A stretch of 64,000 nt of DNA. It comes from a virus. This document shows positions 3,101 through 38,851 of this stretch, one piece after another. Each line of letters begins with the position of its first letter. Within the stretch, counting starts at the first letter, position 1. A program made the position numbers and the translations under genes. The stretch spans positions 4,181 through 68,180 of IMG/VR virus record IMGVR_UViG_3300008886_000001. One strand, given 5' to 3'. Under the pieces are notes generated by a model that saw only the letters and a program-made list of their open reading frames with translations, did not search any database and was not told the DNA's origin.

Positions 3101-4300
3101 CGCGAGTGGCTCGGCGCCGTGGCGAAGAAGAAGCCCGCGGCGACGATCGCCCGGCTGAAGAAGCGGTCTGACGATCTCAAAACGGCCCTCAGTGGAACCG
3201 CCAAGTCGGCGGTCGCCGGCCTCCTCGACGACCCCGAAACTCAAGCTCTCCTGGCCAAACGGCGGGCGGCCAAATCGGTCGCACCGGCACCCGTTGCAGA
3301 ACCAGCCTCGAATGGCCCTCCCGCGCAAGCGACGGAACCGGAGGCGGCCAAACCCCAGTCGCCACCCAAACGGGAGCCGAAGAAGCCACCGAAAGAGAAG
3401 GCCGCGCCAAAACCCAAAGTGCCGAAGAAGGCCCCGTCGCTCGAACAAGCCGAGAGCGATCCCCACGCGGACCGGAACTACCTGGCTGCGGTCACCGCGC
3501 AGTACCCGGAAGATTCGGACGCGCGCGATTATCTCGACGCGGCGCTACACAACCTGCTCGAACCCGATGCCGACGAAAAGGCCGGTTCGGGAACGCGGCG
3601 GCGCGACACGCTTGACAACCTCGGCGCGCAGTGGCGCGCCGCGTTCAGGGCCGGCAAGGGCGAGGCCGCGGACTCGCTGGCGAAGGTGATCCACTCGTTC
3701 GGCGGCAAACTGAAGGGAGACCCCCGGAAGGTCACGCAGTTCGACGGGCGCCTGTTCGACGGACCGACCGGCGTTTTCACAAACGATCCCGTGGTGGTCG
3801 AACGCCCGGCGGTGGTGCTCACCGACCCAAAAACGGGGCACGAGTACGTTGCGGCGAAGGGCGCCGTGCGGAAAGCGTCGCTGGCAAAACCCGCGCCCGA
3901 AGTGGCCCCGGCTCCTTCCGCGCCACCGAGCGCGGGGTCGGACGAGGATCTCGACGCGGCGGCGGCCCGCGTGGAGGACGAAGCCCGGAAGGACCGCGGG
4001 TGGCGACAGTCGGGCGCGTACCGGATTGCCCTCCTCCGGGGCGAACTGAACAAGACCGGGGACCGCGCGCGGCACCTGGACCTGAACGGGATCGCGGACG
4101 CCCTGCGGAACTACGCCACGACGGAGAAGAACCTGGCCGATCCGGTCGGCGCGACCGTGGACCGGTTGGCCCGCGCGCTGACCGCCCGCATGTCGCCCGA
4201 ACAGAAGGGCGAACTGGTCAAAATTTACCGGCAACTGAACCGGTACAACGAGGACGGGTTCGCCCCGAGTGTCCGCGCGATCGAGCCGCCGGGGGACTGA
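116..4300 (+). CDS. Portal protein (DUF935/Mu gp29-like, about aa 1-430) fused to a long Lys/Ala/Pro-rich C-terminal cargo region
   Basis: N-terminal pattern IPRMLRDPQV...YYPPG...TINFG resembles DUF935 portals; remaining ~960 aa low-complexity with embedded globular segments. Confidence 0.7.
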   Translation: MGRNTTSTAAPADGDDPKKKKNLRAKIAGRSPTIGYHPTGYGWWGYGAAALDGAPIFTWIDIPRMLRDPQVRFIERLWRAPFQKVKWTVKATDKRVANFVSNTLRRFWRQSLPRLLSKYWRFGFAAGGAEFIPHRGRHRLNTVRALECRDVQPRVWANGERRGAFAGFTLRSAESSEPIWVGEPHAMWFAGYQELGEFYDSAPLGGLFEPWLEKRGRNGAVHARRLWFRKGAWRGKKIYYPPGKTNVGPDESPVERDNQDIARELLDYAEAGGTYAFENVANAGMEGKYDWDMEDDAPQADIAGFREYPRDLDMEMLDGAGIPREVVQSSESGSGYNGRLLPYQGFLGTVDELSGLIVNACEPWLRGAVTINFGASVWYEIQLQSLEEQAEQENLQNQKRSGDLPAAAAKGMGAKPFQAKGTSAGGDIPFDLSTTDSELPVLRTLLNLNAKVDHLLFGKPLELAATTTPDDDPGVKQAAFQQVNKKLMRSRKSTIAQLLALAMIRTQQRATAAGKPEAAAGSLEALANLAGDPVQVAQIVGMKELSALELSWEPFTGAKGGQGWYNTETNEKRYQKTKPGERKEKQEASEKAGLEIIAKVAKRRATPEEVAELATHLPVMRGRELVKARAVLEANLRGERQKTFMVQRLLDHVARSKEIRAAVPKELKLPDEAAAKSRAAKKSKLAGTVAQSVIDFGGIDPDDHAFRTVYGSVKEAVQDGVPLAAFRDSKGRRGHSGLDALAGELHHSGHIRIPAGKRPEEFVLDLLKKGAKAHGEESAAEQDKKYEEYLKNRHGPQADEKKTTPEPKLNSKGYPADWDEPAEVKGGAEPAPATESARTEEPPPAPVAKEIAKEVAKPAPAKKRPKNTPVHVAETEANALKAAVAYNAVVEATRDGASPEQVKKLHDRAAAAADGVPEDKRGQFLAHLTNAAAGKGKLLPIPKAHESELEDVQPDEELPPVEAAPVPAATRDDDDETTEEPVEKSTLEIKADAARREWLGAVAKKKPAATIARLKKRSDDLKTALSGTAKSAVAGLLDDPETQALLAKRRAAKSVAPAPVAEPASNGPPAQATEPEAAKPQSPPKREPKKPPKEKAAPKPKVPKKAPSLEQAESDPHADRNYLAAVTAQYPEDSDARDYLDAALHNLLEPDADEKAGSGTRRRDTLDNLGAQWRAAFRAGKGEAADSLAKVIHSFGGKLKGDPRKVTQFDGRLFDGPTGVFTNDPVVVERPAVVLTDPKTGHEYVAAKGAVRKASLAKPAPEVAPAPSAPPSAGSDEDLDAAAARVEDEARKDRGWRQSGAYRIALLRGELNKTGDRARHLDLNGIADALRNYATTEKNLADPVGATVDRLARALTARMSPEQKGELVKIYRQLNRYNEDGFAPSVRAIEPPGD

Positions 4301-4331: not shown

Positions 4332-6440
4332 ATGGCGACGTTCATCAACGGCACCGTTCCCTGCGCCGATCCCGCGACCCTGTACGCGGAATGTGTGGCG
4401 CAGGGGCTCCCCACGGAGCGGTGGAGGGGGAAGGGCAACTCGTTTCGTGTCGCCCCGGGCCGGGACCCGGGGCGCGGCTGGTTCTTGATGACATACGCCA
4501 ACCTGTTTGGCGACGGCACCTCCGCGAACCCCGGCCTCAACGCCGCCACGGACCTCGCTTTCACGTTCTCCGGCGAGGACGCCGACCACCTCCTGACCCT
4601 GTCCCCCGTCACTCTCTTAAACAGCGAGTGCGTCACTCCCGGTTCGGACTCGGACCCGAACTCGGTCTACCTGTGCGAGGTGGTGGACCGCCGGCACCAC
4701 CTCGAGCGCATCCCGTTCCCGGCGACGGACAACGGGTACCTGTCGTACAACCTGTCCACCGCGGACGGTTCGGCGTTCTTCTCGGCGTCGCTCAACGGCG
4801 GCAGCTCGCAGTGGACCTGGCAGGGCGTGGTGAACGATCTCGTCACCCAACTCGGCTTGAGCACGGCGCAGTTCACGCTGCCCTTCGCGCCGACGGGCAA
4901 CCCGGAGAACCTCGTGTTCAACGAGGACGGGCCGTGGGCGGCGCTGTGCGACGTGTGCGACCGCCTGGGCTGCGTGGTCGCCGCCTATCCGGTGAAGGAT
5001 ACGTTCGCGATCGTGCAACTCGGCGCGGCGAAGGACGGCCCGCTGAACGCGATCACGGACGACCGGATCTGGGACGGGTACCCGTCCGAAGAGGTGCGCG
5101 GCTGGCGCCCGGAGAAGGTGCGGGTGCGGTTCCCGCGCCGGCCCGTCGATACGTGGAACAACGGGAACTCGCCGTTTTACATCGTCGATGTGACCCTCCC
5201 GACGACGAGCGGGGTGGTTACCGGGACCGTCGTCCAACTCGACGACGGGTTCACCGCGCAGGGCGCGACCGGGACCCCGACCAACGCCTCCACGCTCGCG
5301 ACGATCGCCACCGAGCGGGCGAACAACTGGCTGCAAAAGCGACAGTTCTACGAACGGCCCGCGCTGCGGGTCTGGCGCGACTTCCAGACCGCCTGGCAAA
5401 CCGTCCTCGCTTATTCGGTGAACCGGGTCGTGCTCGACGATACCGGTGGCCTGATGCAAACGGTCGCAACCGCCGGGCCGGATCTGAAGCTGGAAAAGTG
5501 GAAGCCGCTGGGTCGCTGGCCGGTGTGGTGGCCGTTCGCGGCGAGTACATCGCCTCCACCCCCGCCACCACCTTCGGTCTGTAGCGGAGCCGAATGGCTC
5601 GCGGCACTCACCAAGAATGATTGCCTCGAAGTGAGCCTGAACGGCACCGATGCAGGATTCGCCCTTACGTCGAGTGACGGAACCACCTGGACGAGCCCCA
5701 CGCGCGAGACGTTGACGATCTGCGGCCACACGTATCTGCTCACGCTGACGCTCTCGGCGTGCGGGGTGCCGTGCTTGACACTGACCGGGGTGGGGAGCGG
5801 GTCCGCCAACTACACGGGCACGTTCGGCTGCGCCGCGTGCAACTACCTCGTCTTCGGGTTCCCCACGGTGTCGCTCTGCGGCAGCACCCCGGTCGCCGGC
5901 GGCCCGTGCAACAATCTCACCAAGATCCGCCTCGACTGGCTCTCCTGCACGCCGGACACGACCTGTACCGGGTTCAATTCCGTGACTGGTGCGATATCGT
6001 CGAACGTGTTCACGAACCTCCCGGTACCGGGGTACATCATCGCGGCGACGCCGGGCAGCAGCGCGGCACTGAACGCCGGGTTCGAGTTCATGTGGAACCA
6101 GAACGGCGGCGCCGCGTGGCTCCAGATGTCGAACATGTCGGGCAGTTTCTCCGCGACCAGTCCGGCCGGGTGCGGCCCCTACGGAAATATCCCGGTCAAC
6201 ATCGGGTGCTACACGAACACCGGTTCGCACCTCTACATCGAGTACGCCCCGGCGTACCTGTACGACTGTTCCGGATGCATCGGGTCGGGGGGCGCGCAGA
6301 TACTGCCGTTCTACACGAGCGCGTCCCCGTACACCGCAGCGTTCATGATCCCGTCTTCGTGGGTCGCCGCCGGCATTCCGTGTCACTCTGGCGGCGCGTC
6401 CGCCGAGATGTGCATTATCGTCTTCAACTACCAGGGCTGA
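4332..6440 (+). CDS. Putative virion (tail-associated) protein, Thr/Ser/Gly-rich, poly-Pro linker and Cys-rich C-terminus
   Basis: 702 aa ORF, composition typical of virion proteins, carries late-promoter motif; no family recognised. Confidence 0.5.
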   Translation: MATFINGTVPCADPATLYAECVAQGLPTERWRGKGNSFRVAPGRDPGRGWFLMTYANLFGDGTSANPGLNAATDLAFTFSGEDADHLLTLSPVTLLNSECVTPGSDSDPNSVYLCEVVDRRHHLERIPFPATDNGYLSYNLSTADGSAFFSASLNGGSSQWTWQGVVNDLVTQLGLSTAQFTLPFAPTGNPENLVFNEDGPWAALCDVCDRLGCVVAAYPVKDTFAIVQLGAAKDGPLNAITDDRIWDGYPSEEVRGWRPEKVRVRFPRRPVDTWNNGNSPFYIVDVTLPTTSGVVTGTVVQLDDGFTAQGATGTPTNASTLATIATERANNWLQKRQFYERPALRVWRDFQTAWQTVLAYSVNRVVLDDTGGLMQTVATAGPDLKLEKWKPLGRWPVWWPFAASTSPPPPPPPSVCSGAEWLAALTKNDCLEVSLNGTDAGFALTSSDGTTWTSPTRETLTICGHTYLLTLTLSACGVPCLTLTGVGSGSANYTGTFGCAACNYLVFGFPTVSLCGSTPVAGGPCNNLTKIRLDWLSCTPDTTCTGFNSVTGAISSNVFTNLPVPGYIIAATPGSSAALNAGFEFMWNQNGGAAWLQMSNMSGSFSATSPAGCGPYGNIPVNIGCYTNTGSHLYIEYAPAYLYDCSGCIGSGGAQILPFYTSASPYTAAFMIPSSWVAAGIPCHSGGASAEMCIIVFNYQG

Positions 6441-7672
6441 TGAACACGACTCACCTGCGCTGCAAGTGCGGCGGCACGAAACCCGGCTGTACGACGTGCG
6501 CGATCTTCCGCGCCGCTCACCGTGTGTTGCCACAGGCGTCCCCACCCGGTCGGGTCTCGCTGCCGGACCTGCGTCCGTGCCAGCGACTCGGTCCGCGGGT
6601 GCCTGGCGGTTCGTGCGGGTCACCTCTGTTGATGTGCGAGTTGCACAGAGACGTTACGACACGCATCACCTCTTGCAGCAGCGCGGCCCGTTGCTGTCGT
6701 GAGTGCCCGGATAAGGTTCTCGACGGCGTTGATCCGCTCATTCTGGAGTCTGACCGGTTCGCTCGCTCGATCCCGCCGTATCCCGCGGACCGGTACTCCG
6801 GCCGCGGGGTCGTGATCGTCGGCGGGGGCAAATACTGGCCCTCGGTGTGGGTCACGGTGCGGATGCTGCGCGACATCGGCTGCACGCTGCCCGTCCAGGT
6901 CTGGCACCTCGGGCCGGCCGAGGCGAACGACTGGATCGCCCACCTCCTGTCCGGCTTCGACGTTGACGTGATAGACGCGTTGGCCCATCCGGAAGCGGCC
7001 AAAACGCGCGGACTCACTGGCTTCATCGACACGACCGCACGCCACGGATCCGGCTCACTGCACCCGCCGTTCCAGGTGAAGAGTTTTGCGGCACTGCATA
7101 GTCCGTTCAAGGAGGTTCTGGTACTCGATGCGGACAATTACCCGTGCGCTGACCCCACGGTGCTGTTCGACGAACCGCGCTACCTCCAGACCGGCGCCGT
7201 GTTCTGGCCGGACCGTGCCGAGACGGCCGAATGGACGCGCTGGGCGGATTGGGGCGTCAAGCCGTTCGGTCCGCACGTCGGTCTGGAGGTCGGGCAATAC
7301 CTCGTGAACAAAGCGAAGGTGTGGGAACCACTCAGCCTGATGCGCTGGTACGACGACCGCGGCGACTGGTGCTACGGCTGGGGGCGCCACCACGACCACG
7401 GCGACAAGGGACCGCCCCGGGTGGCGTGGGCCAAGTTCCGGCGCGAATACACGATGTACGCCACCCACTGCAATTGGGACCATGTGGCGTTCGTCCAGCC
7501 CGGTCCGGACGGCGTGTCGCCCATGTTCATCCACCGGTGCCAGTCGAAGTTCGTTCTCGACGAAACCGCGTTCGATTCCACGCCCCAGCTCCGGCCGAAC
7601 ATGCGGTTGGGGTTCGCGGGCGAAGAGACCGCGTTCGGCTTCCTCGACGAACTCCGGAGGCTGTTGACGTGA
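6440..7672 (+). CDS. Glycosyltransferase, GT71/Mannosyl_trans3 (MNN2/MNN5-like) with Cys-rich N-terminal domain
   Basis: GRGVVIVGGGKY...LPVQVWHLG...KSFAALHSPFKEVLVLDADNYP...TGAVFWPD; ATG overlaps upstream TGA (ATGA). Confidence 0.8.
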   Translation: MNTTHLRCKCGGTKPGCTTCAIFRAAHRVLPQASPPGRVSLPDLRPCQRLGPRVPGGSCGSPLLMCELHRDVTTRITSCSSAARCCRECPDKVLDGVDPLILESDRFARSIPPYPADRYSGRGVVIVGGGKYWPSVWVTVRMLRDIGCTLPVQVWHLGPAEANDWIAHLLSGFDVDVIDALAHPEAAKTRGLTGFIDTTARHGSGSLHPPFQVKSFAALHSPFKEVLVLDADNYPCADPTVLFDEPRYLQTGAVFWPDRAETAEWTRWADWGVKPFGPHVGLEVGQYLVNKAKVWEPLSLMRWYDDRGDWCYGWGRHHDHGDKGPPRVAWAKFRREYTMYATHCNWDHVAFVQPGPDGVSPMFIHRCQSKFVLDETAFDSTPQLRPNMRLGFAGEETAFGFLDELRRLLT

Positions 7673-26070: not shown

Positions 26071-26294
26071 GTTGGTACCTCGATCGGCCCGCACCATTCG
26101 CCACCGCTGTTCTCTACGTACCACTCATCATCTGATCCAACCATGAGGTATGATAACGGAGCCACCCCTTTACACTCGATCACCTGTACGCAACTCGTGC
26201 CGCATTTTGGGTGCCGCCACCAGTACCAACCCGGAACGGTCGGTACCAGCACTGTGAAGGTTGTGACCATCCTTGCACTTTCCTTTCCACTCAT
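26067..26294 (-). CDS. Small hypothetical phage protein
   Basis: ATGA overlap with terL stop; PTVPGWYWWR motif. Confidence 0.55.
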   Translation of the reverse strand: MSGKESARMVTTFTVLVPTVPGWYWWRHPKCGTSCVQVIECKGVAPLSYLMVGSDDEWYVENSGGEWCGPIEVPT

Positions 26295-27772
26295 TTTAAC
26301 CCGTCGTACTGTCCGCGCCTTGATTGATAGATGAACGGCGCCGCACCGCTCCCCGCGCCGCCCGTCACCCGCACACTCGGTAGGCACTCGCACGCGTAGC
26401 TGAATGTATCGACAATATCGTCTTGTTCATCGTCAGTTAAACCCGTGAACCTGACGAGTTCGCCGCGCACGTCTTCGAGCGGGAAGAGCGGGTGGTCATC
26501 TGGGAGGAACAACCGTCCCGATGCGGCGAGACTGATCGCGCCGAGCGCCCGGTCCAGTTTGTCCCGACTCTTCGGGTTCACGCTCCGCACGATCATGACC
26601 GGAGCTGTGCTCTTCCGCAAGAATTGTGCGTGCGCCCGCTGGTTCAGCACTTCTTCCACCGCGATGAACTGCGGCTTGTGCTGCCGGTACAACGACTGGC
26701 ATATTCCCAACTGCTCTGGGATCTCCATTTTGTCGCGGTAACAGTCCCACCACACCAGCCGCGCTTCGGGCGTCACCTTCCACGTCGAGACCACGAAGTG
26801 GTCTGCCGCGTTCGAGGCCGACGCTGATGGGTCATACGTCTGGAACGTCGCCGCATTTCGCCACTTGAACCGTTCGAGCACTTCCGCCTTCCCGGTCGGT
26901 CCGAATCCCGTCAACACGCACCAGTCCTTCCATGTCGGGTCTTTGGTCCAGGTGTTCCGTAACCACTCTGCCCGGAACTTTCCGCCCGCAACGGCGTCCC
27001 AATCCCCTTTCTCGCGCTGGGCTCGCGTCAGCGGGTCCAATTTCGCCAGTGCGTTCGTCCGGTACTCCTCGACGTCGAGGTTTCCTTTGTTGTCTTCCAG
27101 CCGGGCCGGAACGAACACCGCGCCCGGCTCGCGTTTCTTCGCGTCCACGAACCGCCTTTTGACCCACTCGTGCCCGCTGTTGCCCGGGTTCGACGTCGAG
27201 CGCATCCGGATCGGCACTTGCGACAACGGTCCCGTCGCTGGGCGCCGCAACCGTCCGAACATGAACTGGTATCGCCACTCCGTGTGCTGCGTGAGTTCGT
27301 CGATTGCGATGAACTGAAACGCCGCCGAGTCGTACTGGTAAACGGCTTTGTCGCTGTCGAGATACCCGAACGTGATTGTTGCGCCGCTCGGAAATGTCCA
27401 TCGCCGGTCCCGCTCGTTCCAGTTCACACCCTTTCCGTACCACCAACTCCGCGACAGATCGATCCACGCCTTCGCCTGATTTAAGTCCGCAAAATTTTCG
27501 CGCAGCAGAAGTGCCGAGTAACCCGGCACGTCCACGTACTGTGCTGCGGCAATTAGCGTTGCATACGTTTTCCCACCGCCCGCAGCCCCGCCGTAAAACA
27601 CCTCCTGCACGTCTGACAGCAACAAGAATTGCCGCTGCTTCGGGTTCTCACTCAACCCACGGTTTCGGGAGTCTTCGGGTATCCACGGATTCTGTTCGAC
27701 GGTCGCCTTGTACGTTGCGACGCGCCATTCCCATGACCTGTATGCCGCCGTTCCACTCGTGATGGCTTCCAT
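26291..27772 (-). CDS. terL: Terminase large subunit (Terminase_6-like)
   Basis: FYGGAAGGGKT Walker A, FIAIDELTQ Walker B, RMRSTSNPG, C-terminal nuclease YDP and DDIVDTFSY. Confidence 0.92.
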   Translation of the reverse strand: MEAITSGTAAYRSWEWRVATYKATVEQNPWIPEDSRNRGLSENPKQRQFLLLSDVQEVFYGGAAGGGKTYATLIAAAQYVDVPGYSALLLRENFADLNQAKAWIDLSRSWWYGKGVNWNERDRRWTFPSGATITFGYLDSDKAVYQYDSAAFQFIAIDELTQHTEWRYQFMFGRLRRPATGPLSQVPIRMRSTSNPGNSGHEWVKRRFVDAKKREPGAVFVPARLEDNKGNLDVEEYRTNALAKLDPLTRAQREKGDWDAVAGGKFRAEWLRNTWTKDPTWKDWCVLTGFGPTGKAEVLERFKWRNAATFQTYDPSASASNAADHFVVSTWKVTPEARLVWWDCYRDKMEIPEQLGICQSLYRQHKPQFIAVEEVLNQRAHAQFLRKSTAPVMIVRSVNPKSRDKLDRALGAISLAASGRLFLPDDHPLFPLEDVRGELVRFTGLTDDEQDDIVDTFSYACECLPSVRVTGGAGSGAAPFIYQSRRGQYDGLK

Positions 27773-28195: not shown

Positions 28196-28756
28196 TTACC
28201 TGTCGCTCACTCCGGGCGTTGCGTCGGTGCTGGGGTTCGGTGGTGCTGGTGTGGTGGGCTCTGGCAGAGCTGGTGAGGTCTCTGTCACACTGCCGCGAGC
28301 CGTGGGGAGTTGGCGCACTCCCGCAAGGAGTTCCTTGGCCGCTTCGATGTCCGCCGGCGTGAGTGTCAGGGATGGGGGATTCACGTTCACCGTCACATTG
28401 GCCTCGACCGCCCCTTTCCCGGTCTCGCCGCGGAGCATGGCCGACTTGTCCAGCAGGACGGCACCGGCAATCACAGCGTCCCGGCCGGACATGTCCTTCA
28501 CCTTCCGCTGAGCCTGGGCGAACATCTTCTTCGCCAGGCGGTCCAGGGAGTCCGCCAGCGCAAGTTTCTTTTGTTGGCGGAGTTCGGCGGGGGGAGGGTG
28601 AATGCTCCCATCCTTCCACGCTTGGATTGTGGTTCGGGGGATGCCGGTTGCACGGGCGGTAGCAACCACGTTGCCACCGTTGGCGTCGAGCGCGGCAAGT
28701 GCTTCGGCCTGATCGGCGTCTGAGTACCGACGGTGTTTTCGGCGTGGCGTGTCCAT
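28196..28756 (-). CDS. terS: Terminase small subunit-like HTH protein
   Basis: N-terminal HTH (YSDADQAEALAAL...ATARATGIPRTTIQAW), upstream of terL. Confidence 0.65.
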   Translation of the reverse strand: MDTPRRKHRRYSDADQAEALAALDANGGNVVATARATGIPRTTIQAWKDGSIHPPPAELRQQKKLALADSLDRLAKKMFAQAQRKVKDMSGRDAVIAGAVLLDKSAMLRGETGKGAVEANVTVNVNPPSLTLTPADIEAAKELLAGVRQLPTARGSVTETSPALPEPTTPAPPNPSTDATPGVSDR

Positions 28757-28763
28757 ACCGGCA

Positions 28764-28779
28764 AGTATGGACCGGACAA
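28764..28779 (-). promoter_or_regulatory. Putative late promoter TTGTCC-N4-CATACT, leaderless
   Basis: ATG 28756 is 7 nt downstream. Confidence 0.55.
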
Positions 28780-28785
28780 GGATTA

Positions 28786-29010
28786 TCAGGGTGTGCCGGG
28801 CTTACCTTTGCGTTTGCGGAACCTCCTATTGTGTTCCGCAGTGATGAGTCGGCGAATCAGCTTGGTACGGTCCAGTTTGATCCCCTCTTCCTCGAGAACA
28901 TCGGCGGCTATGTCCGAGAGTCGTTGCAGATCTGTGCCGGTGAATCGGATTGTGGAGGCGGGGGGATTCACCTCCGGTGTCTCTTCGGGTTCGCGCTGGG
29001 GGTGTGCCAT
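28786..29010 (-). CDS. Small putative DNA-binding protein (ribbon-helix-helix-like)
   Basis: STIRF...LQRLSDIA...DRTKLIRRLI; divergent from early promoter array. Confidence 0.45.
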   Translation of the reverse strand: MAHPQREPEETPEVNPPASTIRFTGTDLQRLSDIAADVLEEEGIKLDRTKLIRRLITAEHNRRFRKRKGKPGTP

Positions 29011-29093
29011 TGTGTTGCCCGGTGTCGGGTAAAGGAGCGTATGTCACTGCAATATACAGTGTTCGCGGGCAAGGGATCGGGATTTTGGAATAA

Positions 29094-29366
29094 CGTATTG
29101 CTTAATGGTATACGTATGGTAGATTCGGTTCGGGGTGAGAAACACTAACGGGAGATGGTGATGATAACGGTCCTTTGGACGGAAGTGGTTTCGGTGAGCT
29201 TCAAGCGGTTCGGGTGGTGCTTGTGGCACTACAGCAGTGAGGCCGGATTGACGGTGGTTCAAGTGGGTGGAATGGTAATTGAAGTTTCGTGGTAGCGTAT
29301 TGCTTCAAGATATACTTATGGTAGATTCGGTTCGGGGTGAGAAACACTAACGGGAGATGGTGATGA
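29094..29366 (+). repeat. Two ~71-bp direct repeats (29094-29164, 29296-29366), each promoter + leader + SD + start
   Basis: ATGGTAGATTCGGTTCGGGGTGAGAAACACTAACGGGAGATGGTGATGA identical in both. Confidence 0.9.
29155..29295 (+). CDS. 46-aa hypothetical early protein
   Basis: GGAG SD, between promoter repeats; ends in TAG. Confidence 0.5.
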   Translation: MVMITVLWTEVVSVSFKRFGWCLWHYSSEAGLTVVQVGGMVIEVSW

Positions 29367-29602
29367 GTGCGGTACAAATGCGGGTTGCGGTACAAGTGCG
29401 AACGGTGGAGCGAGGGTCATGGAGATGGCAGGATGCGTTCCGGGTCCAGCTCGTTCAGTGCCCGGTGGGTGAGTCGCCGGACTGTCGGAGGAGGAGTCAC
29501 ACGCTGGTCAGTGTGATCGCGAAGAAGACAGCCCATCCTCGGCAATATCTGGAGATGGCGGAGATGAAGGCGAACGAGCTGACAGCGGAGATGAAGCGGT
29601 AA
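29357..29602 (+). CDS. Hypothetical early protein
   Basis: GGAG SD after second promoter repeat. Confidence 0.55.
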   Translation: MVMSAVQMRVAVQVRTVERGSWRWQDAFRVQLVQCPVGESPDCRRRSHTLVSVIAKKTAHPRQYLEMAEMKANELTAEMKR

Positions 29603-29612
29603 TCGGGTCGTA

Positions 29613-29653
29613 GGTCCGACAAGCGGCAGGTGAGTGCAAGCCTCACCCGGACC
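29613..29653 (+). ncRNA. T-loop-like structured RNA element, copy A
   Basis: GGTCCG/CGGACC stem, 10-nt bulge ACAAGCGGCA, GGTGAG/CTCACC stem, loop TGCAAGC. Confidence 0.6.
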
Positions 29654-29693
29654 ACTCCGAGCAATCCCGCTCGGTACCACTGGAGGATATGTG

Positions 29694-29996
29694 ATGAGTG
29701 TGCGTCTTGATCTGTCCCTGACGAACGTGATCCTGTACCGCGACTGTCAAATTGAGACAGTCGCGGGGCGCCAAAACCTCACGACCCCTATACCCGACGC
29801 GGTCAACCTGGTCGGCCGCAACGTGAACGAGTGGGTACAGACTATCCCTACCGACGCGCGGACCGACATTACCCTGACCGGCCCGATGGCCGTGTGGGCA
29901 TACCTGATCGTGTTCCACGCGGTCGTTCACGCCTTCGGTCGGGTGTACTACGACGACGGGCGTAACGGGCCGGTGCTAATCGCTGCGCACGGATAA
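29694..29996 (+). CDS. Csx3/Crn3-like protein (putative cyclic oligoadenylate ring nuclease)
   Basis: ITLTGPMAVWAYLIVFHAVVH...YYDDGRNGPVLIAAH matches the Csx3 G-x4-W-x6-H-x3-H-x6-YD..R.G.V....H pattern; 100 aa; GGAGGA SD. Confidence 0.65.
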   Translation: MSVRLDLSLTNVILYRDCQIETVAGRQNLTTPIPDAVNLVGRNVNEWVQTIPTDARTDITLTGPMAVWAYLIVFHAVVHAFGRVYYDDGRNGPVLIAAHG

Positions 29997-30003
29997 CGTC
30001 ACA

Positions 30004-30044
30004 TCCCCGTCAAGCGGCTGACCGGTGCAAGCCCGGTCCGGGGA
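30004..30044 (+). ncRNA. T-loop-like structured RNA element, copy B
   Basis: TCCCCG/CGGGGA stem, bulge TCAAGCGGCT, GACCGG/CCGGTC stem, loop TGCAAGC. Confidence 0.6.
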
Positions 30045-30073
30045 ACTGTCTCAAATCTATGGGAGGATCGGTA

Positions 30074-30364
30074 ATGGAAACGTGCAACGCAATCGATGTG
30101 AAGCCGGTGCCGAAGTCCACTCCGAAGGGTGCAGTGCGATTAGTTCGCGCTCGGGCTGTTAGAGCCTTAACCTACACGAGTTTCGGGGGCCGATGCGAGA
30201 CCTGGCTACCGGTTGGATACTGGCGGGTGGAAGGTGACTGTCTCGTTCGAGCGGGGCGCGATGGTGGGGAACTGGTTCCAGCCCTAATACTTCTGAGGCC
30301 GGCCCCACTCACGCAAGACGGTGTATGGTATGTGGCACCGGCAGCTCTGGGGTTGGGGAAGTAA
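30074..30364 (+). CDS. Hypothetical early protein
   Basis: GGAGGA SD. Confidence 0.5.
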   Translation: METCNAIDVKPVPKSTPKGAVRLVRARAVRALTYTSFGGRCETWLPVGYWRVEGDCLVRAGRDGGELVPALILLRPAPLTQDGVWYVAPAALGLGK

Positions 30365-30453
30365 CATATGGATACGTATTGCTTACTGACATACGTATGG
30401 TACATTCGGGCGGTCGGGTTGAGGAGTCCAACACACACGAACGAGGTCACATA

Positions 30454-30714
30454 ATGAGCGCGTTCAGCTATGCACCGGGGCTGCCACTGGTGCCGAAGGT
30501 CTACACTGCGAAGAGGTTCAGTGATGGGAGCCGAACCGTGTATACGTGCGGGATGAATCTGGGCGTTGGACGGTCTGGGCAGGTGTACTGGATGGACGAT
30601 TGGGGCCGGGTGGAAGAGTTAGTATCGGCTGGTGTGCTGGTCCGCGAGATCCATAACGGAGAGGGCACCACCGGACACGACACGTACCGGCTTGACGACT
30701 GGTTCATTGAGTAG
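30454..30714 (+). CDS. Hypothetical early protein
   Basis: Follows promoter copy 3, GAGG SD; ends in TAG. Confidence 0.55.
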   Translation: MSAFSYAPGLPLVPKVYTAKRFSDGSRTVYTCGMNLGVGRSGQVYWMDDWGRVEELVSAGVLVREIHNGEGTTGHDTYRLDDWFIE

Positions 30715-30809
30715 ATTTTATTCAACCTAATGTATTGCTTAAAGACATACGTCAGGGTAGTATCTCCCTCAGTTACGCGGTTCACAAACCACACGCACAA
30801 GGGGTTAAC

Positions 30810-31325
30810 ATGGCACGCACAAAGACGACAGTTTCGGGTCTGTTCGGTTCCCTGCTACGGCCGTTGACGGATGCGGTCTACGCGGAGACGGGTAAGCGGG
30901 TGACAGTTGCCGGGTGGGGCCGTGTTCTGCGGTCCCTGGTCGCTACCGGGCTGCGGATGATCGCCGATGCTCTCCAGCCAGCTCCCGTGGCCATGAAGAC
31001 CGAACCCCGCCCGGCCGATCCGGTGGGGCAACACCCGCGAGGGCTACCACATGCGGGCCTTCAACGTCGAACGGTTGCCCGAGGGTGCCTACCGCGCCCC
31101 GACCGACGAGGAGCGAGCCGTGTTCGCCACGGTAGTGACGGAACGCAAGGCAAAGGAGAAAGCCGACAAGGGCGCGGTGCCGTCGCTGATCAACCCGACC
31201 GATGCCGACGCGGAGAAGCTACAAGCGCGGTGGAACGCGACGGCCAAAGCCAGGGACGCACGCACCCCGGAATCAGCCGTGCTCCGCATGACGCAAGCGG
31301 AATACTCGGCGCGCAGCAAGGGTGA
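30810..31325 (+). CDS. Hypothetical protein (3' half overlaps next ORF; true extent uncertain)
   Basis: Follows promoter copy 4. Confidence 0.3.
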   Translation: MARTKTTVSGLFGSLLRPLTDAVYAETGKRVTVAGWGRVLRSLVATGLRMIADALQPAPVAMKTEPRPADPVGQHPRGLPHAGLQRRTVARGCLPRPDRRGASRVRHGSDGTQGKGESRQGRGAVADQPDRCRRGEATSAVERDGQSQGRTHPGISRAPHDASGILGAQQG

Positions 31326-31764
31326 CGGCCCGTGCGAGACGTCCGACATCTCGGAGCAATTGCGCATCCGTCGGACGGATTACACGGGTCGCGATGGGGG
31401 CGGGCGGGTGACTGTGTTCAAGGTTCGCACGGGGATCGCGGGCGGCTACTCGTACTCCGCAGCGCGCAGGGTGATCGTCCTGACCGACAAGCCGCAAAAG
31501 GCGTTGCCCTGGAGCACGGCCGAAGCTATCCGCGAAACGATGCCGACCGTCGAGATGTTGCGCTCGCGGCTCGCCGAGTTGGCCGAGTTGATCCGCTCCC
31601 ACCGGTTGTCGATGGAGTACACAGCGGAGGAAAAGCAACTCCTCGCCGACGCGGCCTATGTCGGGTGGGCCTATGAGGCGTCCGCATCTCAGCGCGGGTG
31701 GACGGAAGTGGGCGCGGCGGTCTACAAGATGTTCGCGGCACAGGTTGAAGCGGTCGTGGTCTGA
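31051..31764 (+). CDS. Hypothetical protein (mobile-element type, precedes methyltransferase)
   Basis: 237 aa ORF, YRAPTDEE motif. Confidence 0.55.
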   Translation: MRAFNVERLPEGAYRAPTDEERAVFATVVTERKAKEKADKGAVPSLINPTDADAEKLQARWNATAKARDARTPESAVLRMTQAEYSARSKGDGPCETSDISEQLRIRRTDYTGRDGGGRVTVFKVRTGIAGGYSYSAARRVIVLTDKPQKALPWSTAEAIRETMPTVEMLRSRLAELAELIRSHRLSMEYTAEEKQLLADAAYVGWAYEASASQRGWTEVGAAVYKMFAAQVEAVVV

Positions 31765-31813
31765 TCCCATTCACCCGGCCGGATGTCCGGCCGGGTTCCT
31801 CAGAGTGTTTCCG

Positions 31814-32455
31814 ATGAGCGAACGCGACTCCCGCCGCACCGGCATTCTCCGGTTACGGCATCTGAAGGAAGTGAACGAAGCAAAAGGTGAAGAGATGGTA
31901 GCACAGCAGGAGCGATTCGCCCGGCTCGCCGATCCGGCGAGCGCTCCCCGGGTGGTCACGGCCTTCAATCTCTTTCAAACGCCCGAGCCTTTGGCCGAAC
32001 GACTGGCCGGGATGTTCGACCGGTTCGGCCGCACACTGGAACCGTCCGCCGGTCTGGGCCGACTCTACCAGACCGTGCGGGTGCGGTCTGGCGAGTGCCC
32101 GATAACTCTGGTGGACAGCTCGCCAGCGTGCTGTGGAGAGCTGTACCGGGTGACTTCGACGGACCCGGCCGTGAGACTGGTGCAGGGCGATTTCCTGACG
32201 ATGGGTGTGGGTCGGTTGGGGCTGTTTGATTCGATCATCATGAACCCACCATTCCGTTTAGGAGCGGACATCAAACACATTCGGCACGCGCTCGAGTTGC
32301 TCGCCCCAGGTGGGCAACTGGTTGCGATTTGTGCGGCAGGGATCAAACGTCGGATTGCGCTCGAGGACGCGACCGAATGGATTGACCTGCCAGATGGGAG
32401 CTTCAAGAGTGAGGGGACGGCGGTCGGCACAGCAGTCGTCGTGTTCAGAAAGTAA
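31814..32455 (+). CDS. SAM-dependent methyltransferase, N6-adenine type (NPPF)
   Basis: LFQTP...LEPSAGLG (motif I)...GDFL...IIMNPPF (motif IV). Confidence 0.85.
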   Translation: MSERDSRRTGILRLRHLKEVNEAKGEEMVAQQERFARLADPASAPRVVTAFNLFQTPEPLAERLAGMFDRFGRTLEPSAGLGRLYQTVRVRSGECPITLVDSSPACCGELYRVTSTDPAVRLVQGDFLTMGVGRLGLFDSIIMNPPFRLGADIKHIRHALELLAPGGQLVAICAAGIKRRIALEDATEWIDLPDGSFKSEGTAVGTAVVVFRK

Positions 32456-32530
32456 TTTCAACTGTCGTATTGCTTGTTGCACTACGCATGGTAGAACGGT
32501 GGCGGGTCGGTACACATGCCACACACGGAG

Positions 32531-33025
32531 ATGGTCATGGTTGATACACGGTGGATGATCCGGCGAGATATTCCGCAAATTATCGCGCTTGAGAAGGCGG
32601 CCGCTGGTGTGTGGCGGGAAGCGGCCTTTCTGGCCGCTCTCAAGAAACGCAACTGTATCGGAATGGTAGCTACAGAAGGTGACCAGATCACGGGGTTCGT
32701 CGTGTACCGACTTCGCCGCGATGATTTGAGTGTGGTGAAGTTCGTGGCACCGAGTGCGGAGGCCAAAACCGTTCTTGGCGAGAAGTTAGTTTTCAAATGT
32801 AACTCACACCGGCGCCCGCGCTTGAAAGTTACATCGTCGCGGAAGTGGGTGACGGACACGGTGCGGCAATTATGCCGAGTTAAAGAGGGATCGCCGCCCG
32901 CGATCCTCGCCGACGCATTGGATGATGCGCGTTGCCCACACACATGGCTCACGAAGATCCTGCGTGGCGACGAAGATACGGCATGGGCGATGTACACCGT
33001 TCTCGCACCGACATTGCGAGTGTGA
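32531..33025 (+). CDS. Degenerate RimI-like GNAT fragment fused to Gemmata-type ILADALxDAxC domain
   Basis: TRWMIRRDI...KKRNCIGMVA.EG..I.GF.VY resembles planctomycete RimI; acetyl-CoA RxxGxG loop absent; PAILADALDDARC. Confidence 0.6.
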   Translation: MVMVDTRWMIRRDIPQIIALEKAAAGVWREAAFLAALKKRNCIGMVATEGDQITGFVVYRLRRDDLSVVKFVAPSAEAKTVLGEKLVFKCNSHRRPRLKVTSSRKWVTDTVRQLCRVKEGSPPAILADALDDARCPHTWLTKILRGDEDTAWAMYTVLAPTLRV

Positions 33026-33076
33026 ACCACACTGGCCGTGGCAATCGGCTGCGGTCCTTACTAGGAGGATAATTCG

Positions 33077-33373
33077 ATGGCAAACATGATGCCTTATGGA
33101 GAGCAGCCCGCGCATCCCTGTGATGTTCCCGTTGAACGTCACGATGGTGGGGAAACAAAGCGGCGTGCGTCCGGTCTCACGATTCGCGACCACTTCGCCG
33201 GCGTCGCCCTAACGGGGTTACTCGCGGCAGAGAGCGATAGTGAGGGGACGGGCATACCTTTCGGCAACTGCGACAAGTTCGCGCCATCGGCCGCAATATT
33301 CGCCCAAATGGCATATATGCTGGCGGACGCAATGATCTCGGCCCGCGATGTGAACCAGGAGTGCCCGTTTTGA
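33077..33373 (+). CDS. Conserved small phage protein (GLTIRDHFAG...AYMLADAMI family)
   Basis: Recognisable motif, GGAGGA SD. Confidence 0.7.
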   Translation: MANMMPYGEQPAHPCDVPVERHDGGETKRRASGLTIRDHFAGVALTGLLAAESDSEGTGIPFGNCDKFAPSAAIFAQMAYMLADAMISARDVNQECPF

Positions 33374-33418
33374 TCGCGCTGTGGCCCGTGGCGTGAAACA
33401 GGAGTAGATGTCGTGTAC

Positions 33419-33553
33419 ATGTGCATTGAATGTCGCCTGACCCCCGCCGAGCTGTTCGCGTTCGGCGGCCTGTTGCTTCTGACCGTCGCCCACCTGGTCC
33501 GCACCTGGCGCGGGCCGGTCTTCAGCGACGACGATTTACCCGAGGTGCTGTGA
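33419..33553 (+). CDS. 44-aa single-TM protein
   Basis: MCIECRLTPAELFAFGGLLLLTVAHL..., TGA overlaps next ATG. Confidence 0.4.
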   Translation: MCIECRLTPAELFAFGGLLLLTVAHLVRTWRGPVFSDDDLPEVL

Positions 33554-33756
33554 TGTGTGAGCGATTCACTGTGATTTGCATTCCCGGCCCTGACAGTGAA
33601 CCGGATCATTGTGGCAACTGGTTTGTGCACGACACGGTCACGGACACTTACGAGGAGTTCCCGGACCGCAGCGCCGCCTATCAAGCGGCGCGGGAACGGA
33701 ACGCGGCGCAGGGGCAAAGCGACACCGCAGCGGAGGGCGCCGACGATGCTCCTTGA
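33553..33756 (+). CDS. Hypothetical protein
   Basis: TGATG coupling. Confidence 0.5.
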   Translation: MCERFTVICIPGPDSEPDHCGNWFVHDTVTDTYEEFPDRSAAYQAARERNAAQGQSDTAAEGADDAP

Positions 33757-34153
33757 TGAATTACTCAAGGCGCCGACCGGATCGGATGACCCGGTTCCCG
33801 CCCAACCGCTGCTCGAAGTGCTGCCCGAGCGGGACGGCAAGCGGAACGCGATCCGCTGGTTTGCTGCTACCGATGATCACACGCCGCAAGCCGGGTTCGT
33901 GGTGATCGATACGCCCGATGCGAGCACCTGTTACGTCGTCACCGAGTTCCCGACCGTGTGGCCGGGCCGAGGGTTCTACTTGCGAAAATGGGTGAGCCGA
34001 TCGGGCAGGGACAAGGACGTTGAAGCGTATTCTGTGCTCTGCGCTAAGGCCGGGGCACGGGCCGATACTTGCGAATGCCGGGGGTTCGTCCGCTGGTCGC
34101 ACTGCAAACATGCGGACGCGATGCGGGCACTTGTTGAAAATCGGTGGGTGTGA
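33746..34153 (+). CDS. SWIM zinc-finger protein
   Basis: TCECRGF...HCKH. Confidence 0.75.
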   Translation: MLLDELLKAPTGSDDPVPAQPLLEVLPERDGKRNAIRWFAATDDHTPQAGFVVIDTPDASTCYVVTEFPTVWPGRGFYLRKWVSRSGRDKDVEAYSVLCAKAGARADTCECRGFVRWSHCKHADAMRALVENRWV

Positions 34154-34155
34154 TC

Positions 34156-34482
34156 ATGATGACAACAAAGCCACGCGCGACCGCAACACCATCGACCGCT
34201 CTCGCGCTCTGGTGGGCGATCCCGCAACCTGTTCGCACGGAGCTGCGGGCTCGCTGCCCGCTCGATTCGACCACTGTTCGAGGTGACTGCCTGATTGTCG
34301 CTGTGGGCTCTGGCACGCCGCTTCGTTGGCTGTGCGTGGAGTCGCTGCCCGATGGGCTTCTTCGTGTGCGGTTGTGGGAGGTAGGGCCGAAACTGAAGGA
34401 GCTGGGACATGCGACCGTCCCAGCTGATGGACTGATCGCCACGCTTCAGGTATTCGCTCGTGAGTTCGCGTTGAGCGAATGA
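34156..34482 (+). CDS. Hypothetical protein
   Basis: Operonic ORF. Confidence 0.5.
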   Translation: MMTTKPRATATPSTALALWWAIPQPVRTELRARCPLDSTTVRGDCLIVAVGSGTPLRWLCVESLPDGLLRVRLWEVGPKLKELGHATVPADGLIATLQVFAREFALSE

Positions 34483-34706
34483 GAGGTTTGGAGGGCATCG
34501 AGTGTCGTGTCGAGGGCACTCGCGATCTTGGCTGCGAGTACCAGTGAGACGTTGAGTTTGCCCCGTTCGATTTTGCTGAGCGCGGCAAGCTGTACTCCCA
34601 CATGTGGGGAGAGATCTGCCAGTGTCATGCCCAGCGATTCCCGGCGAGTGCGGACCGCCGCCCCGAACCGAGCCAAAATCACATCTACGGTGGTTGTGCT
34701 GTCCAT
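34446..34706 (-). CDS. XRE-family HTH regulator
   Basis: FGAAVRTRRESLGMTLADLS...LSKIERGKLNVSL..AAKIASAL. Confidence 0.9.
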   Translation of the reverse strand: MDSTTTVDVILARFGAAVRTRRESLGMTLADLSPHVGVQLAALSKIERGKLNVSLVLAAKIASALDTTLDALQTSHSLNANSRANT

Positions 34707-34722
34707 GATTACATTGTACCAC

Positions 34723-34792
34723 TTATCCTGACGGGAAAATCGCTTTCAGGAAATATGCGATTTCTTCTTGATTTAGTTTCCTGATAGGATAA
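34723..34792. promoter_or_regulatory. Divergent promoter with two inverted operator-like sites TTATCCTNNCRGGAAA (34723-34738, 34777-34792)
   Basis: TTATCCTGACGGGAAA and reverse complement TTATCCTATCAGGAAA, between XRE gene and divergent operon. Confidence 0.55.
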
Positions 34793-34845
34793 TATACCTA
34801 CATGAACGCGACGCACGCTGCGACGCGGCAACGGGAGACGAGATC

Positions 34846-35262
34846 ATGGCGACGATTGCTCCTATCAGTGAGGTTGTCTTTTACCGCGAATCAACGTTCG
34901 GGCCAGCGATCCGGCATGCTGGTGACACCCTTCATCAGGCTCGGTCCGTGGTCTCAGCTCACGAGGGTCACGGTCCGCTGTTGGTTGTGCGATTCGACCG
35001 ATGGGTGGAAGTGATCCCGGTTCGCCTGCGCGAGTACCCCGACGCTCAGCGAAACGAGCGTCGCGATGGATTCAATCTCAGCTACTCCTGCGATCTCGAG
35101 CCCACCGGGCGGACATGGCCGGTATCTCTGACGCGTCTCGGCGCGGTGATTGATGGCGTCGAGTACCGTCGTGAATTCGCGGCGTGGCCGCTTGAGCAAC
35201 CGCTCTTTGCCACGGAAGAGGATGCAGAGGAGTACAGCCGGCGCCGTGCAGCGGCCGTTTGA
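34846..35262 (+). CDS. Hypothetical protein
   Basis: GGAG SD. Confidence 0.55.
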   Translation: MATIAPISEVVFYRESTFGPAIRHAGDTLHQARSVVSAHEGHGPLLVVRFDRWVEVIPVRLREYPDAQRNERRDGFNLSYSCDLEPTGRTWPVSLTRLGAVIDGVEYRREFAAWPLEQPLFATEEDAEEYSRRRAAAV

Positions 35263-35270
35263 TTTTCTCG

Positions 35271-35327
35271 AGCCCGACCAGCGGCATCACGGTGCAAGCC
35301 CGTGACGGTGCAAGCCCGTGGCGGGTT
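35271..35327 (+). ncRNA. T-loop-like structured RNA element, copy C, with internal 16-bp tandem duplication
   Basis: AGCCCG/CGGGTT stem, bulge ACCAGCGGCA, TCACGG stem, loop TGCAAGC; ACGGTGCAAGCCCGTG twice. Confidence 0.55.
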
Positions 35328-35371
35328 CCTTCACGCGACGCACATCGCGACGCAACAACGGAGGGATGACG

Positions 35372-36211
35372 ATGGCAACTTCCAGTTTGAACCGCCGAGA
35401 ACTGAGTATTCGCCTCCACCCGCAGATGGAGGCGGCACTCAATCCAGAGGCCAGCACTGACCGCCTGCTCGACGTGTACGCTCGGTGGGTGTCGGTGTCG
35501 CAGCAGGGCACGGGCGCCGCGACGGAACAGGACTGGACCGACTACCTGCGTGCGGCCGAGCGCCTCGAAGCCGACGCGGCCAGACTGGACGCCCTGGTCA
35601 CCAAACCGATCGACATGCAACGGTTGCGACGGCACATCAGGCATGTGGCCGTCATGCACGAGTACCCGAGCGGTCCGGTTTGGGTTTACACATACTGTGG
35701 CAAGGGGTTTTACAAGATCTACAAAACCTCGAATCCGAATGTGGTGGCGCAATTGACGGACCAACTGGAGGCCGAGTTGGATGAGGCTCTTGTCGCGAAA
35801 GCGATTGGTGAGGCGGTGTTGGTCCGGCGACGGGTCAAAAACTGCCGGGAGGACGACCGCCGTAACCCGCACTACAGTCGTCGGACCGACGACGATCTCA
35901 AAGCCATCGTCACCCGGGCACTGGACGAAGGGTGGGCGGACGGCGGCCTGTGCTACGCAGCGATGGGTGCCATCGAGATTATCCGCCGCCGTTTGCGGGC
36001 GGTGGGGGTGACGGACTTCGCCGAGGCCCTCCGCGAGCGGATCGCTCGCATTGAAGCCCGGAAGCGGGCAAAGAGCGAGTTGCCCGCGGCCCGTGCCCGT
36101 CTGGCAGTCTACCGCCAGAATGAGGCCACATACCGGGCCAACGGCCACGACATTGACGAACTGATCCGCCAAGAAGAGACGCGGGTTCGTGAATGCGAAG
36201 CCGCGTTGTGA
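35372..36211 (+). CDS. Hypothetical helical protein
   Basis: GGAGG SD, 279 aa. Confidence 0.6.
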   Translation: MATSSLNRRELSIRLHPQMEAALNPEASTDRLLDVYARWVSVSQQGTGAATEQDWTDYLRAAERLEADAARLDALVTKPIDMQRLRRHIRHVAVMHEYPSGPVWVYTYCGKGFYKIYKTSNPNVVAQLTDQLEAELDEALVAKAIGEAVLVRRRVKNCREDDRRNPHYSRRTDDDLKAIVTRALDEGWADGGLCYAAMGAIEIIRRRLRAVGVTDFAEALRERIARIEARKRAKSELPAARARLAVYRQNEATYRANGHDIDELIRQEETRVRECEAAL

Positions 36212-38128: not shown

Positions 38129-38851
38129 GTGATCGCGCTGATCGCGTATTACCGGGTTTCTACGAAGAAACAGGGCGAAAGCAAGCTGGGTCTGGAGGGC
38201 CAGCAGGCGTCCGTCCGGGACTACGCGCGCCGGCTCAATGTACCGATCGCGGCCGAGTTCACCGAAGTGGAAAGTGGGTGGTTGACGGCTGATCGTCCCC
38301 AATTAGCCGCCGCCTTGGAGCGCGCCCGGGTGTGCGGTGGGACGATCGTCGTCGCGAAACTGGACCGGCTCGCCCGTGATGTGCGACTCACGATGGACCT
38401 GATGGACGGGGACGTCCCGCATGTCTACCTGGACTACCCCCAGGCTGACCCCACGACCGCGTCAGGCTGGCTGATGGTCGTCATGGCTTCGGTCATGGCC
38501 GAGTATGAGAGCCGGCGGGGTAGCGAGAGGGTCAAGGCTGCGCTCGCCCGTCGGCACGCGCGGCTCGTCGCCGAGGGTAAGGCCGAACCGAAGCCGCCGC
38601 CGTCGCCCCCGAAGGGACGCAACCGGGTACACACCCGGAGTCATCAGCAGCACGCCTGCGCGGCCTGGCATGCGCAGGACCGCACGGCCAGCGCAGAGTT
38701 CCGGAAGAACTATTTCCCATTGGTCGAGGCCCTGCGCGAAAAGCACGGCACACTGGAAGCGGTTGCCGACCATCTGAACGCGTGCGGCATTCGGACGCGG
38801 CGCGGTCGCAAGTGGTCGGCGGGAACCGTTCACTGGCTCCTAAAGAAATGA
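38129..38851 (+). CDS. Small serine recombinase (resolvase/invertase family)
   Basis: AYYRVSTKKQ (catalytic Ser), VVAKLDRLAR, MAEYESRRGSERVKAAL, C-terminal LNACGIRTRRGRKW. Confidence 0.92.
   Translation: MIALIAYYRVSTKKQGESKLGLEGQQASVRDYARRLNVPIAAEFTEVESGWLTADRPQLAAALERARVCGGTIVVAKLDRLARDVRLTMDLMDGDVPHVYLDYPQADPTTASGWLMVVMASVMAEYESRRGSERVKAALARRHARLVAEGKAEPKPPPSPPKGRNRVHTRSHQQHACAAWHAQDRTASAEFRKNYFPLVEALREKHGTLEAVADHLNACGIRTRRGRKWSAGTVHWLLKK

Follow-up and report, generated by a model that had tools for sequence, protein, structure and literature searches.

A small plus-strand gene of viral origin, gene X (P0001; 29694..29996, stop codon included), encodes a 100-residue protein whose remote homology to the ring nuclease Csx3/Crn3 is well supported and, in our estimation, very probable. 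The gene lies in the window, by which is meant the whole 64,000-nucleotide stretch that was analysed (positions 4,181 to 68,180 of IMG/VR record IMGVR_UViG_3300008886_000001). Judged from its sequence, gene X is a member of a sister family of Csx3, distinct and mostly viral, that stands outside curated Csx3. By analogy with the characterised Csx3 proteins, we propose that it is a viral cyclic-oligoadenylate (cOA) ring nuclease serving as an anti-defence protein, a reading to which we give even chances.

The reading frame runs from an ATG at 29694 to a TAA at 29994-29996, as the first-pass annotation had it, and is preceded on the plus strand by a Shine-Dalgarno-like GGAGGA (29682..29687), read from the sequence 6 nt 5' of the start. 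An alternative GTG at 29634 would lengthen the frame; the ATG is favoured, being the common start point in all homologues (M-x-x-(L/I)-D-L-S-L). Alignments to AfCsx3 and to canonical Csx3 delimit a C-terminal Csx3-like core at residues 62-99 (29877..29990, plus strand), which includes T62-G63 (29877-29882), W68, H75 (29916-29918), H79 (29928-29930), D88 (29955-29957), R90 (29961-29963) and H99 (29988-29990). The peptide quoted in the first-pass annotation, LTGPMAVWAYLIVFHAVVHAFGRVYYDDGRNGPVLIAAH, corresponds to residues 61-99.

Several searches, partly interdependent, point to Csx3. The single gene X protein matches the PADLOC Csx3 profile at E 5.1e-5 (in a library without curated cut-off), the CARF_HEPN_CSX3 profile at E 8e-4 and NCBIfam TIGR02579 at E 0.04, where its 14.2 bits fall below the curated cut-off of 55.4 bits. 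TIGR02579 is matched at E <= 0.01 by 12 of 78 diverse family members (best 1.7e-5), and no other NCBIfam family is matched by any of the 78. Among 1.84 billion proteins, the family profile retrieves P0242 (E 6.5e-5) and P0249 (E 3.9e-4), which match TIGR02579 at 1e-11 and 2e-9 respectively. A canonical reference set was gathered from seeds in two Desulfobacterota genomes (100 and 95 bits), yielding 177 PF09620 relatives, M. mazei Csx3 included, of which 32 were aligned. Comparison by hhalign of the diverse family alignment with these 32 proteins gave a probability of 91% and E 9.5e-7, over 49 columns confined to the C-terminal half. The close-family alignment alone gave 4%, and its profile found no PDB chain, because that alignment is little diverse (Neff 1.8); the diverse alignment is required. 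The sole PDB sequence match of gene X is AfCsx3 (E 1.3). No Pfam match was found at E up to 10, PF09620 included, and the only PHROGs match, to 'minor tail protein' (E 0.013), is at chance level. The PADLOC and hhalign values place the Csx3 likeness claimed in the first-pass annotation beyond chance. By curated thresholds, gene X is nevertheless outside Csx3 (TIGR02579/PF09620) membership on its sequence. Since the sequence profiles agree with the structural aligners, each with a moderate score, remote homology to Csx3 is taken as well supported.

The AF2 model of gene X (pLDDT 94) supports a predicted Csx3-type alpha/beta fold, with scores that are moderate. A Foldseek search of the PDB returned AfCsx3 chains as its top 11 matches (E ~0.02, probability up to 1.0), and clusters named Csx3 ranked second and third in the AlphaFold DB (E 2e-4 and 6e-4; TM 0.59 and 0.57), while the viral structures of BFVD gave nothing under E 0.01. 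In VIA-align, an independent all-against-all aligner, the best match was AfCsx3 3wzh (rmsd 2.2 Å over 72 residues) with a Z of 6.6, to be read knowing that best Z values of 7-8 are common with this aligner even for models without a clear match. The next matches were cOA sensors (Cap5 SAVED, Cat1, AcrIII-2, Csm6, Can2 and Cad1), the SAVED proteins being weak fold matches at Z 5.0-6.2; RuvC, pantothenate kinase and MinC represented other folds at Z 5.5-5.7. Kinship with STAS or anti-sigma-antagonist proteins was considered and rejected, no such protein standing within the 50 best fold matches. The claim that the fold differs from that of the known viral ring nuclease AcrIII-1 also stands, as gene X has no Pfam match and a DUF1874 structure is absent from its fold matches.

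These scores bear on the least probable of the alternatives, that gene X has nothing to do with nucleotide signalling and is an RNA exonuclease/deadenylase (the activity for which Csx3 was first described), a STAS-like regulator or some other phage protein with a common alpha/beta fold. Such a reading would fit the modest structural scores, with a Foldseek E in the PDB of only ~0.02 and a VIA-align Z of 6.6 beside 5.5-5.7 for RuvC, pantothenate kinase and MinC, and the restriction of the sequence link to the C-terminal half. However, sequence profiles, which are independent of fold, point to Csx3 alone, the remaining fold matches are mostly cOA sensors (SAVED, CARF, Cat1, AcrIII-2), STAS proteins are missing from the top 50 and the conserved residues coincide with those that contact cA4 or are catalytic in AfCsx3. 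We consider it very unlikely.

Modelled as a pair, as the first-pass annotation had suggested, gene X is predicted to form a homodimer with an ipSAE of 0.62 against 0.00 for the best control, a value that may owe something to Csx3 structures on which the model was trained. In calibration, 20 of 30 true homodimers and 1 of 23 single chains passed the mark, rates that are approximate here because a custom alignment was supplied. The predicted interface takes in the helix-2 residues 70-72, 74-75 and 78 and would therefore bring H75 near the two-fold axis, as for H57 and H60 of AfCsx3.

In AfCsx3, cA4 is contacted by S44, G45, R46, I49 and R71; two essential residues are D69 on one face of the dimer and H60 on the other, H60 and H57 being the probable Mn2+ ligands at the two-fold axis, and H80 pins the ribose (PMC7371418). 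With the AfCsx3 register confirmed by the chain numbering of 6vjg (offset 6), S44-G45 correspond to T62-G63 of gene X, R46 to P64, I49 to V67, W50 to W68, H57 to H75, D69 to D88 (or D87), R71 to R90 and H80 to H99. The D/R register is uncertain by one residue, D87-D88-G89-R90 standing where AfCsx3 has D-P-R. The counterparts of the cA4-binding face are thus kept in T62, G63, V67, D88 and R90, with the replacement of R46 by Pro64 as the exception, and T62, G63, V67, W68, H75, H79, D88, R90 and H99 are invariant or nearly so among the close family. Y70 is the tyrosine of most canonical Csx3 (WLY), where AfCsx3 itself has a histidine. The spacing reported in the first-pass annotation is correct, with 12 residues separating both G63 from H75 and G45 from H57, and 9 residues separating both R90 from H99 and R71 from H80; the one extra residue that it noted before the arginine is located somewhere between H75 and R90.

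The placement of that residue matters for the histidine site, where gene X has H-A-V-V-H (HxxxH) and Csx3 has HxxH. In the HMMER and the ungapped hhalign alignments H60 stands opposite V78, and H79 opposite the non-conserved H61, whereas a gapped hhalign alignment pairs H79 with H60. The distances from H79 to D88, R90 and H99 (9, 11 and 20 residues) are exactly those of H60, so the extra residue may sit between the two histidines, and the end of helix 2 at residue 78 (DSSP) leaves room for it; H79 would be the equivalent of H60 only if the one-residue insertion falls inside the helix. The A. fulgidus sequence that the first-pass annotation gave for this comparison is real, but it is that of the H60A mutant in 6yud (AHKYAHTP) rather than the wild type (AHKYHHTP; 6vjg, 3wzi). 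Its matching 'two His' are consequently H57 and H61, not the catalytic H60, and for the same reason they appeared to fit without a gap.

Across the 78 diverse members, the histidine triad (75, 78 or 79, and 99) is complete in 24, wholly missing in 38 and mixed in 16, counts that are inflated by shared ancestry, while G63, W68, Y70, Y86, D88 and G89 are far more widely kept. Read from the alignments, this pattern is consistent with a ring-binding face shared by the entire superfamily and a histidine site whose residues are retained or lost together; gene X falls within a subfamily retaining H75, H79 and H99. It also raises the alternative that gene X binds cyclic oligonucleotides without turnover, as a sponge or very slow nuclease with filament stacking of the kind described for Csx15, itself a good cA4 sponge and a slow nuclease (PMC13148439). 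The wider conservation of the ring-binding face (G63, D88, G89, R/K90) than of the triad would suit a sponge, as would the missing counterpart of H60 at its aligned column, and with about half of the diverse members lacking all three histidines, binding without catalysis would seem ancestral or common. Against this, the triad is invariant in the gene X subfamily, and its co-variation as a unit would be difficult to account for if there were no catalytic or metal site; sponging has moreover been called a poor answer to the large amounts of cOA made by type III systems (PMC13148439). On balance, a sponge is unlikely.

The N-terminal half of gene X has invariant residues of its own (N11, Y15, G25, R26, N28 and T31) that are missing from canonical Csx3, which suggests that its ligand may differ. 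That gene X acts on a signal other than type III cA4, whether a CBASS-type cyclic trinucleotide or some unknown nucleotide, with any type III link incidental, would be in keeping with these foreign residues and with the report in the Csx15 preprint that a CRISPR ring nuclease also cuts CBASS signals. Yet every characterised Csx3 is cA4-specific (PMC7371418), and the conserved residues of gene X are those contacting cA4 in AfCsx3. We regard another signal as distinctly unlikely, and the genomic contexts of the homologues, discussed below, bear further on it.

The homologue family is large and almost without annotation. A word-seeded search found at least 688 clusters at 90% identity, with lengths of ~98-100 aa; none carries a Pfam domain, and the few that are named are 'hypothetical'. 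The family profile collected 130 clusters at 50% identity from 1.84 billion representatives, and the 40 closest relatives of gene X share 24 invariant columns. The gene X protein is itself present in the ESM Atlas, where the name 'Csx3 family' is assigned automatically to its cluster and to the one after it, and where the commonest taxon is Uroviricota. No match was obtained when 50,697 deposited phage genomes were searched by tblastn with three family members, so the family seems so far to be limited to uncultivated phages. Close relatives, at 52-70% protein identity, were found on 11 IMG/VR contigs and 24 genome contigs, at loci whose GC content ranges from 23 to 56% (64% in the window); Gemmataceae and other NCBI or Logan contigs are among the carriers of close homologues. 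The retention of such identity across this spread fits a universal small molecule as the target. In five proteins two Csx3-like domains are fused in tandem (P0176, P0191 and P0208, of ~205-214 aa, and P0242 and P0249); the first three lack the histidine triad in both halves, and the arrangement recalls the origin of SAVED from fused CARF-like units. The family is also duplicated on two phage contigs, with adjacent copies at L008:~6001-6600 and copies 4 kb apart at L061:927-1223 and 5395-5691.

The source record is a 72,227-base linear IMG/VR virus contig, 79% complete, and not a phage inside a host genome, so the 'prophage' of the first-pass annotation goes further than the record supports. 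A temperate phage is nonetheless suggested by a serine recombinase gene (Resolvase domain, E 3e-24; 38129-38851, plus strand), which closes the plus-strand early block. Gene X is the first gene of this ~9-kb block, which consists mostly of small unannotated genes and includes a DNA methyltransferase and a GNAT-like protein; the large terminase (26291-27772) is encoded on the opposite strand. Neither Cas10 nor a CRISPR array was found in the 72-kb record, nor any cas gene in the homologous phage contigs read, which agrees with the earlier statement that none is nearby. Elsewhere in the window, at 59131-59285 and 60758-60832, ARAGORN called three minus-strand tRNAs: one labelled Pyl (anticodon CUA), its neighbour labelled Phe (aaa) with an odd anticodon loop, and a tRNA-Pro (cgg).

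A 36-nt motif, CGTATTGCTT...ATACGTATGGTAGATTCGG, occurs in five copies (repeat family D1; 29093-29128, 29295-29330, 30374-30409, 30730-30765 and 32465-32500), all of them upstream of plus-strand genes. The copy nearest gene X, CGTATTGCTT-N-ATAC-N-TATGGTAGATTCGG (29295..29330, plus strand), is a possible promoter; it lies 364 nt before the gene X ATG, and a single 81-codon frame without family match (29357..29602, plus strand) stands between them. The first two copies fall within an 81-nt stretch, leader and start codon included, that is present twice (29091-29171 and 29293-29373, 90% identical). The 'early promoter' of the first-pass annotation thus has a repeated upstream motif in its favour, at some distance, but a sigma-70 consensus scan called none of the five copies; the motif is promoter-like in its placement, and a promoter role is possible. 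Gene X is also bracketed by two copies of a plus-strand stem-loop (repeat family D3), one just upstream (29613..29653) and one just past its stop codon (30004..30044), with a third copy at 35271-35327. The three share a predicted two-stem fold with the common loop UGCAAGC and a 10-nt bulge, (A/U)C(A/C)AGCGGC; their folding z-scores are modest (-0.9 to -1.7, with -1.7 for copy 1), and an Rfam search of 28500-36000 gave no match. As modelled, these hairpins might mark gene X off as a cassette, with a role in processing or regulation.

Similar surroundings are found in other phages. At L003, L005, L021 and L022 the homologue is flanked on one side by a Cro/CI-type repressor region and on the other by a replication module (AAA_24, DUF669, helicase and methylase genes), and the contigs of P0005, P0118, P0050, P0028 and P0098 carry one-directional arrays of small unannotated genes together with RNR, ligase, HNH, YqaJ/RecT or Rad52 genes. 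No cas genes were present at any of the homologue contexts read, phage contigs included. Gene X is thus phage-borne, without cas neighbours and in a phage early-gene context. An apparent conserved neighbour ('cluster 1') was discarded, being an antisense shadow frame of the gene X homologue itself. The candidate anti-type III, Csx3/Crn3-like protein of the first-pass annotation can accordingly be kept for its fold, its remote homology and its phage-borne position away from cas genes, but not for curated membership or for H60 at the aligned column.

Family members are also found in cellular genomes. The small carriers tested comprised four Patescibacteria lineages, two uncultured bacteria, one Gammaproteobacteria and one Bdellovibrionales. 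Cas10 above the cut-off was found in none of seven carrier genomes of at most 1.3 Mb, the four Patescibacteria among them, with one weak sub-threshold match, and a SMODS cyclase in none of five (four shared with those seven), all of these being MAGs that may be incomplete. The Patescibacteria copies without detected Cas10 weaken the case for a role against type III systems only. Synteny with a glmM-like gene (a likeness judged by eye) is kept in four Saccharibacteria loci, so these copies look chromosomal. Patescibacteria copies are found near a TrmB-like regulator (L015:6662-8300, L018, L016:2775-5171, L017 and L033), and five loci have a radical-SAM gene within two genes of the family member, with best matches that are NrdG-like and weaker ones that are viperin-like, all below cut-off. 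At L015 and L018, a 159-aa stand-alone SAVED protein (PADLOC SAVED4, E 5e-16; NCBIfam SAVED, 33.4 bits against a cut-off of 33) is encoded directly upstream of the family member, and neither Cas10 nor a SMODS cyclase was found in the L015, L016 and L018 genomes. Going by these sequence matches, the SAVED neighbour appears to keep the cyclic-nucleotide theme at the Patescibacteria loci, and the TrmB-like, radical-SAM, SAVED and gene X-like set may form an undescribed nucleotide-signalling or anti-defence cassette.

These cellular copies are the other ground for a signal unlike type III cA4: they occur in genomes of at most 1.3 Mb, mostly Patescibacteria, without Cas10 above the cut-off, a SAVED gene directly precedes two of them, and a radical-SAM gene is close by in five loci. 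The five carrier genomes tested for a SMODS cyclase, however, yielded none, which counts against this reading. In Desulfobacterota, Csm1 above the cut-off was present in both carriers as compared with 60 of 301 genomes in a sample of the phylum (20%), an association that at n=2 is only a hint; two carriers against such a background are too few, and Cas10 association was dropped as support. A separate Csx3-like family of ~80 aa (L043-L054; 21-34 bits to TIGR02579, below cut-off) shares a contig with Csm1 in at least four Desulfobacterota genomes, at a distance of 5-12 kb (for example G049:C17:28023-28154 and G157:C23:285279-285431). Its sequence, LTGxAPVWLYLKIAHALHGK...SPVTGDVVIFDH, shares with gene X the C-terminal core LTG-x-(A/G)P(I/V)WLY, the helix histidine pair and the terminal D-H. 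These proteins differ in keeping HxxH, in having S-P-V-T-G for D-x-R and in being cas-linked, unlike gene X.

If gene X is a ring nuclease, as proposed, its mechanism can be modelled on AfCsx3 by analogy. The product would be a small dimeric protein of Csx3/Crn3 fold whose dimers, early in infection, would enclose a cyclic oligoadenylate in a head-to-tail stack; the ligand would most likely be cA4, the product of Cas10 in a host type III CRISPR system. The ring would be bound by the face formed by T62-G63, V67, D88 and R90, and the opposite face of the next dimer would contribute the histidine cluster H75, H79 and H99 and a divalent metal. Cutting of the ring to linear products would then silence cOA-activated effectors, making this an anti-CRISPR aimed at the signal and not at a host protein. 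The ligand, the catalytic step and its need for metal, the stacking and the anti-defence function are all inferred from this analogy.

The closest known system is Crn3/Csx3 itself, which is type III CRISPR-associated, cA4-specific and Mn2+-dependent (PMC7371418), and which is represented by AfCsx3 (PDB 3wzg, 3wzh, 3wzi, 6yud and 6vjg) and M. mazei Csx3. Gene X resembles it in its length of ~100 aa, its fold, its predicted homodimer with helix-2 histidines at the two-fold axis, and the motifs (S/T)-G-x3-(I/V)-W-x-Y, helix His, Y-D-x-R and terminal His, with spacing equal but for one residue. It differs in scoring below every curated threshold, in having HxxxH for HxxH and proline for R46, in its N-terminal half, which is unrelated in sequence, and in the distribution of its family, which is found in phages and other non-cas contexts whereas Csx3 is found at type III CRISPR loci. 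The likeness to AcrIII-1/Crn2 (DUF1874) lies in the proposed role, that of a small viral enzyme destroying cA4 rather than binding a host protein, and in conservation across viruses of very different hosts; the fold of AcrIII-1 is, in contrast, unrelated and its chemistry metal-independent (PMC7371418), and gene X has no DUF1874 match.

Only that one viral ring nuclease had been identified before AcrIII-2, of SAVED fold, which is now known as the second (PMC12751052). AcrIII-2 (PDB 9r8s) is likewise viral, belongs to the CARF/SAVED superfamily, sandwiches cA4 head to tail and is a weak fold match of gene X (Z 5.6), but it is a fused, pseudo-dimeric SAVED protein of 238 aa, whereas gene X is a single domain of 100 aa that would need to dimerise, and a Pfam search found no PF18145 (SAVED) match in it. 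When Crn1-3, Csx15, Csx16 and Csx20 models were run on 28,114 phage genomes in a 2025 survey, AcrIII-1 was found in 36 genomes, Csx20 in 4, Csx16 in 2 and Crn3 in none (PMC12409355), and our literature search found no paper on a viral Csx3.

With only two characterised families of viral ring nuclease, AcrIII-1 and AcrIII-2, the gene X family would be a third kind. We suggest, tentatively and with somewhat less than even confidence, that it is a third and possibly the most widespread viral class ('AcrIII-3'), with a Csx3 fold and a metal site of HxxxH type, which uncultivated phages of many phyla would carry and which published surveys would have overlooked for scoring below Csx3 thresholds. 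Were the family active, phages would have taken up the Csx3 fold in the way they did DUF1874 and SAVED, a function could be given to hundreds of unannotated phage genes from metagenomes, the unusual active site shared between two dimers could be studied in an HxxxH variant, and a compact tool for switching off cOA signalling would become available. The presence of the family in genomes without detectable Cas10 or CD-NTase would also raise the question of which signal it meets there; its Patescibacteria relatives may be part of an undescribed nucleotide-signalling system that has neither.
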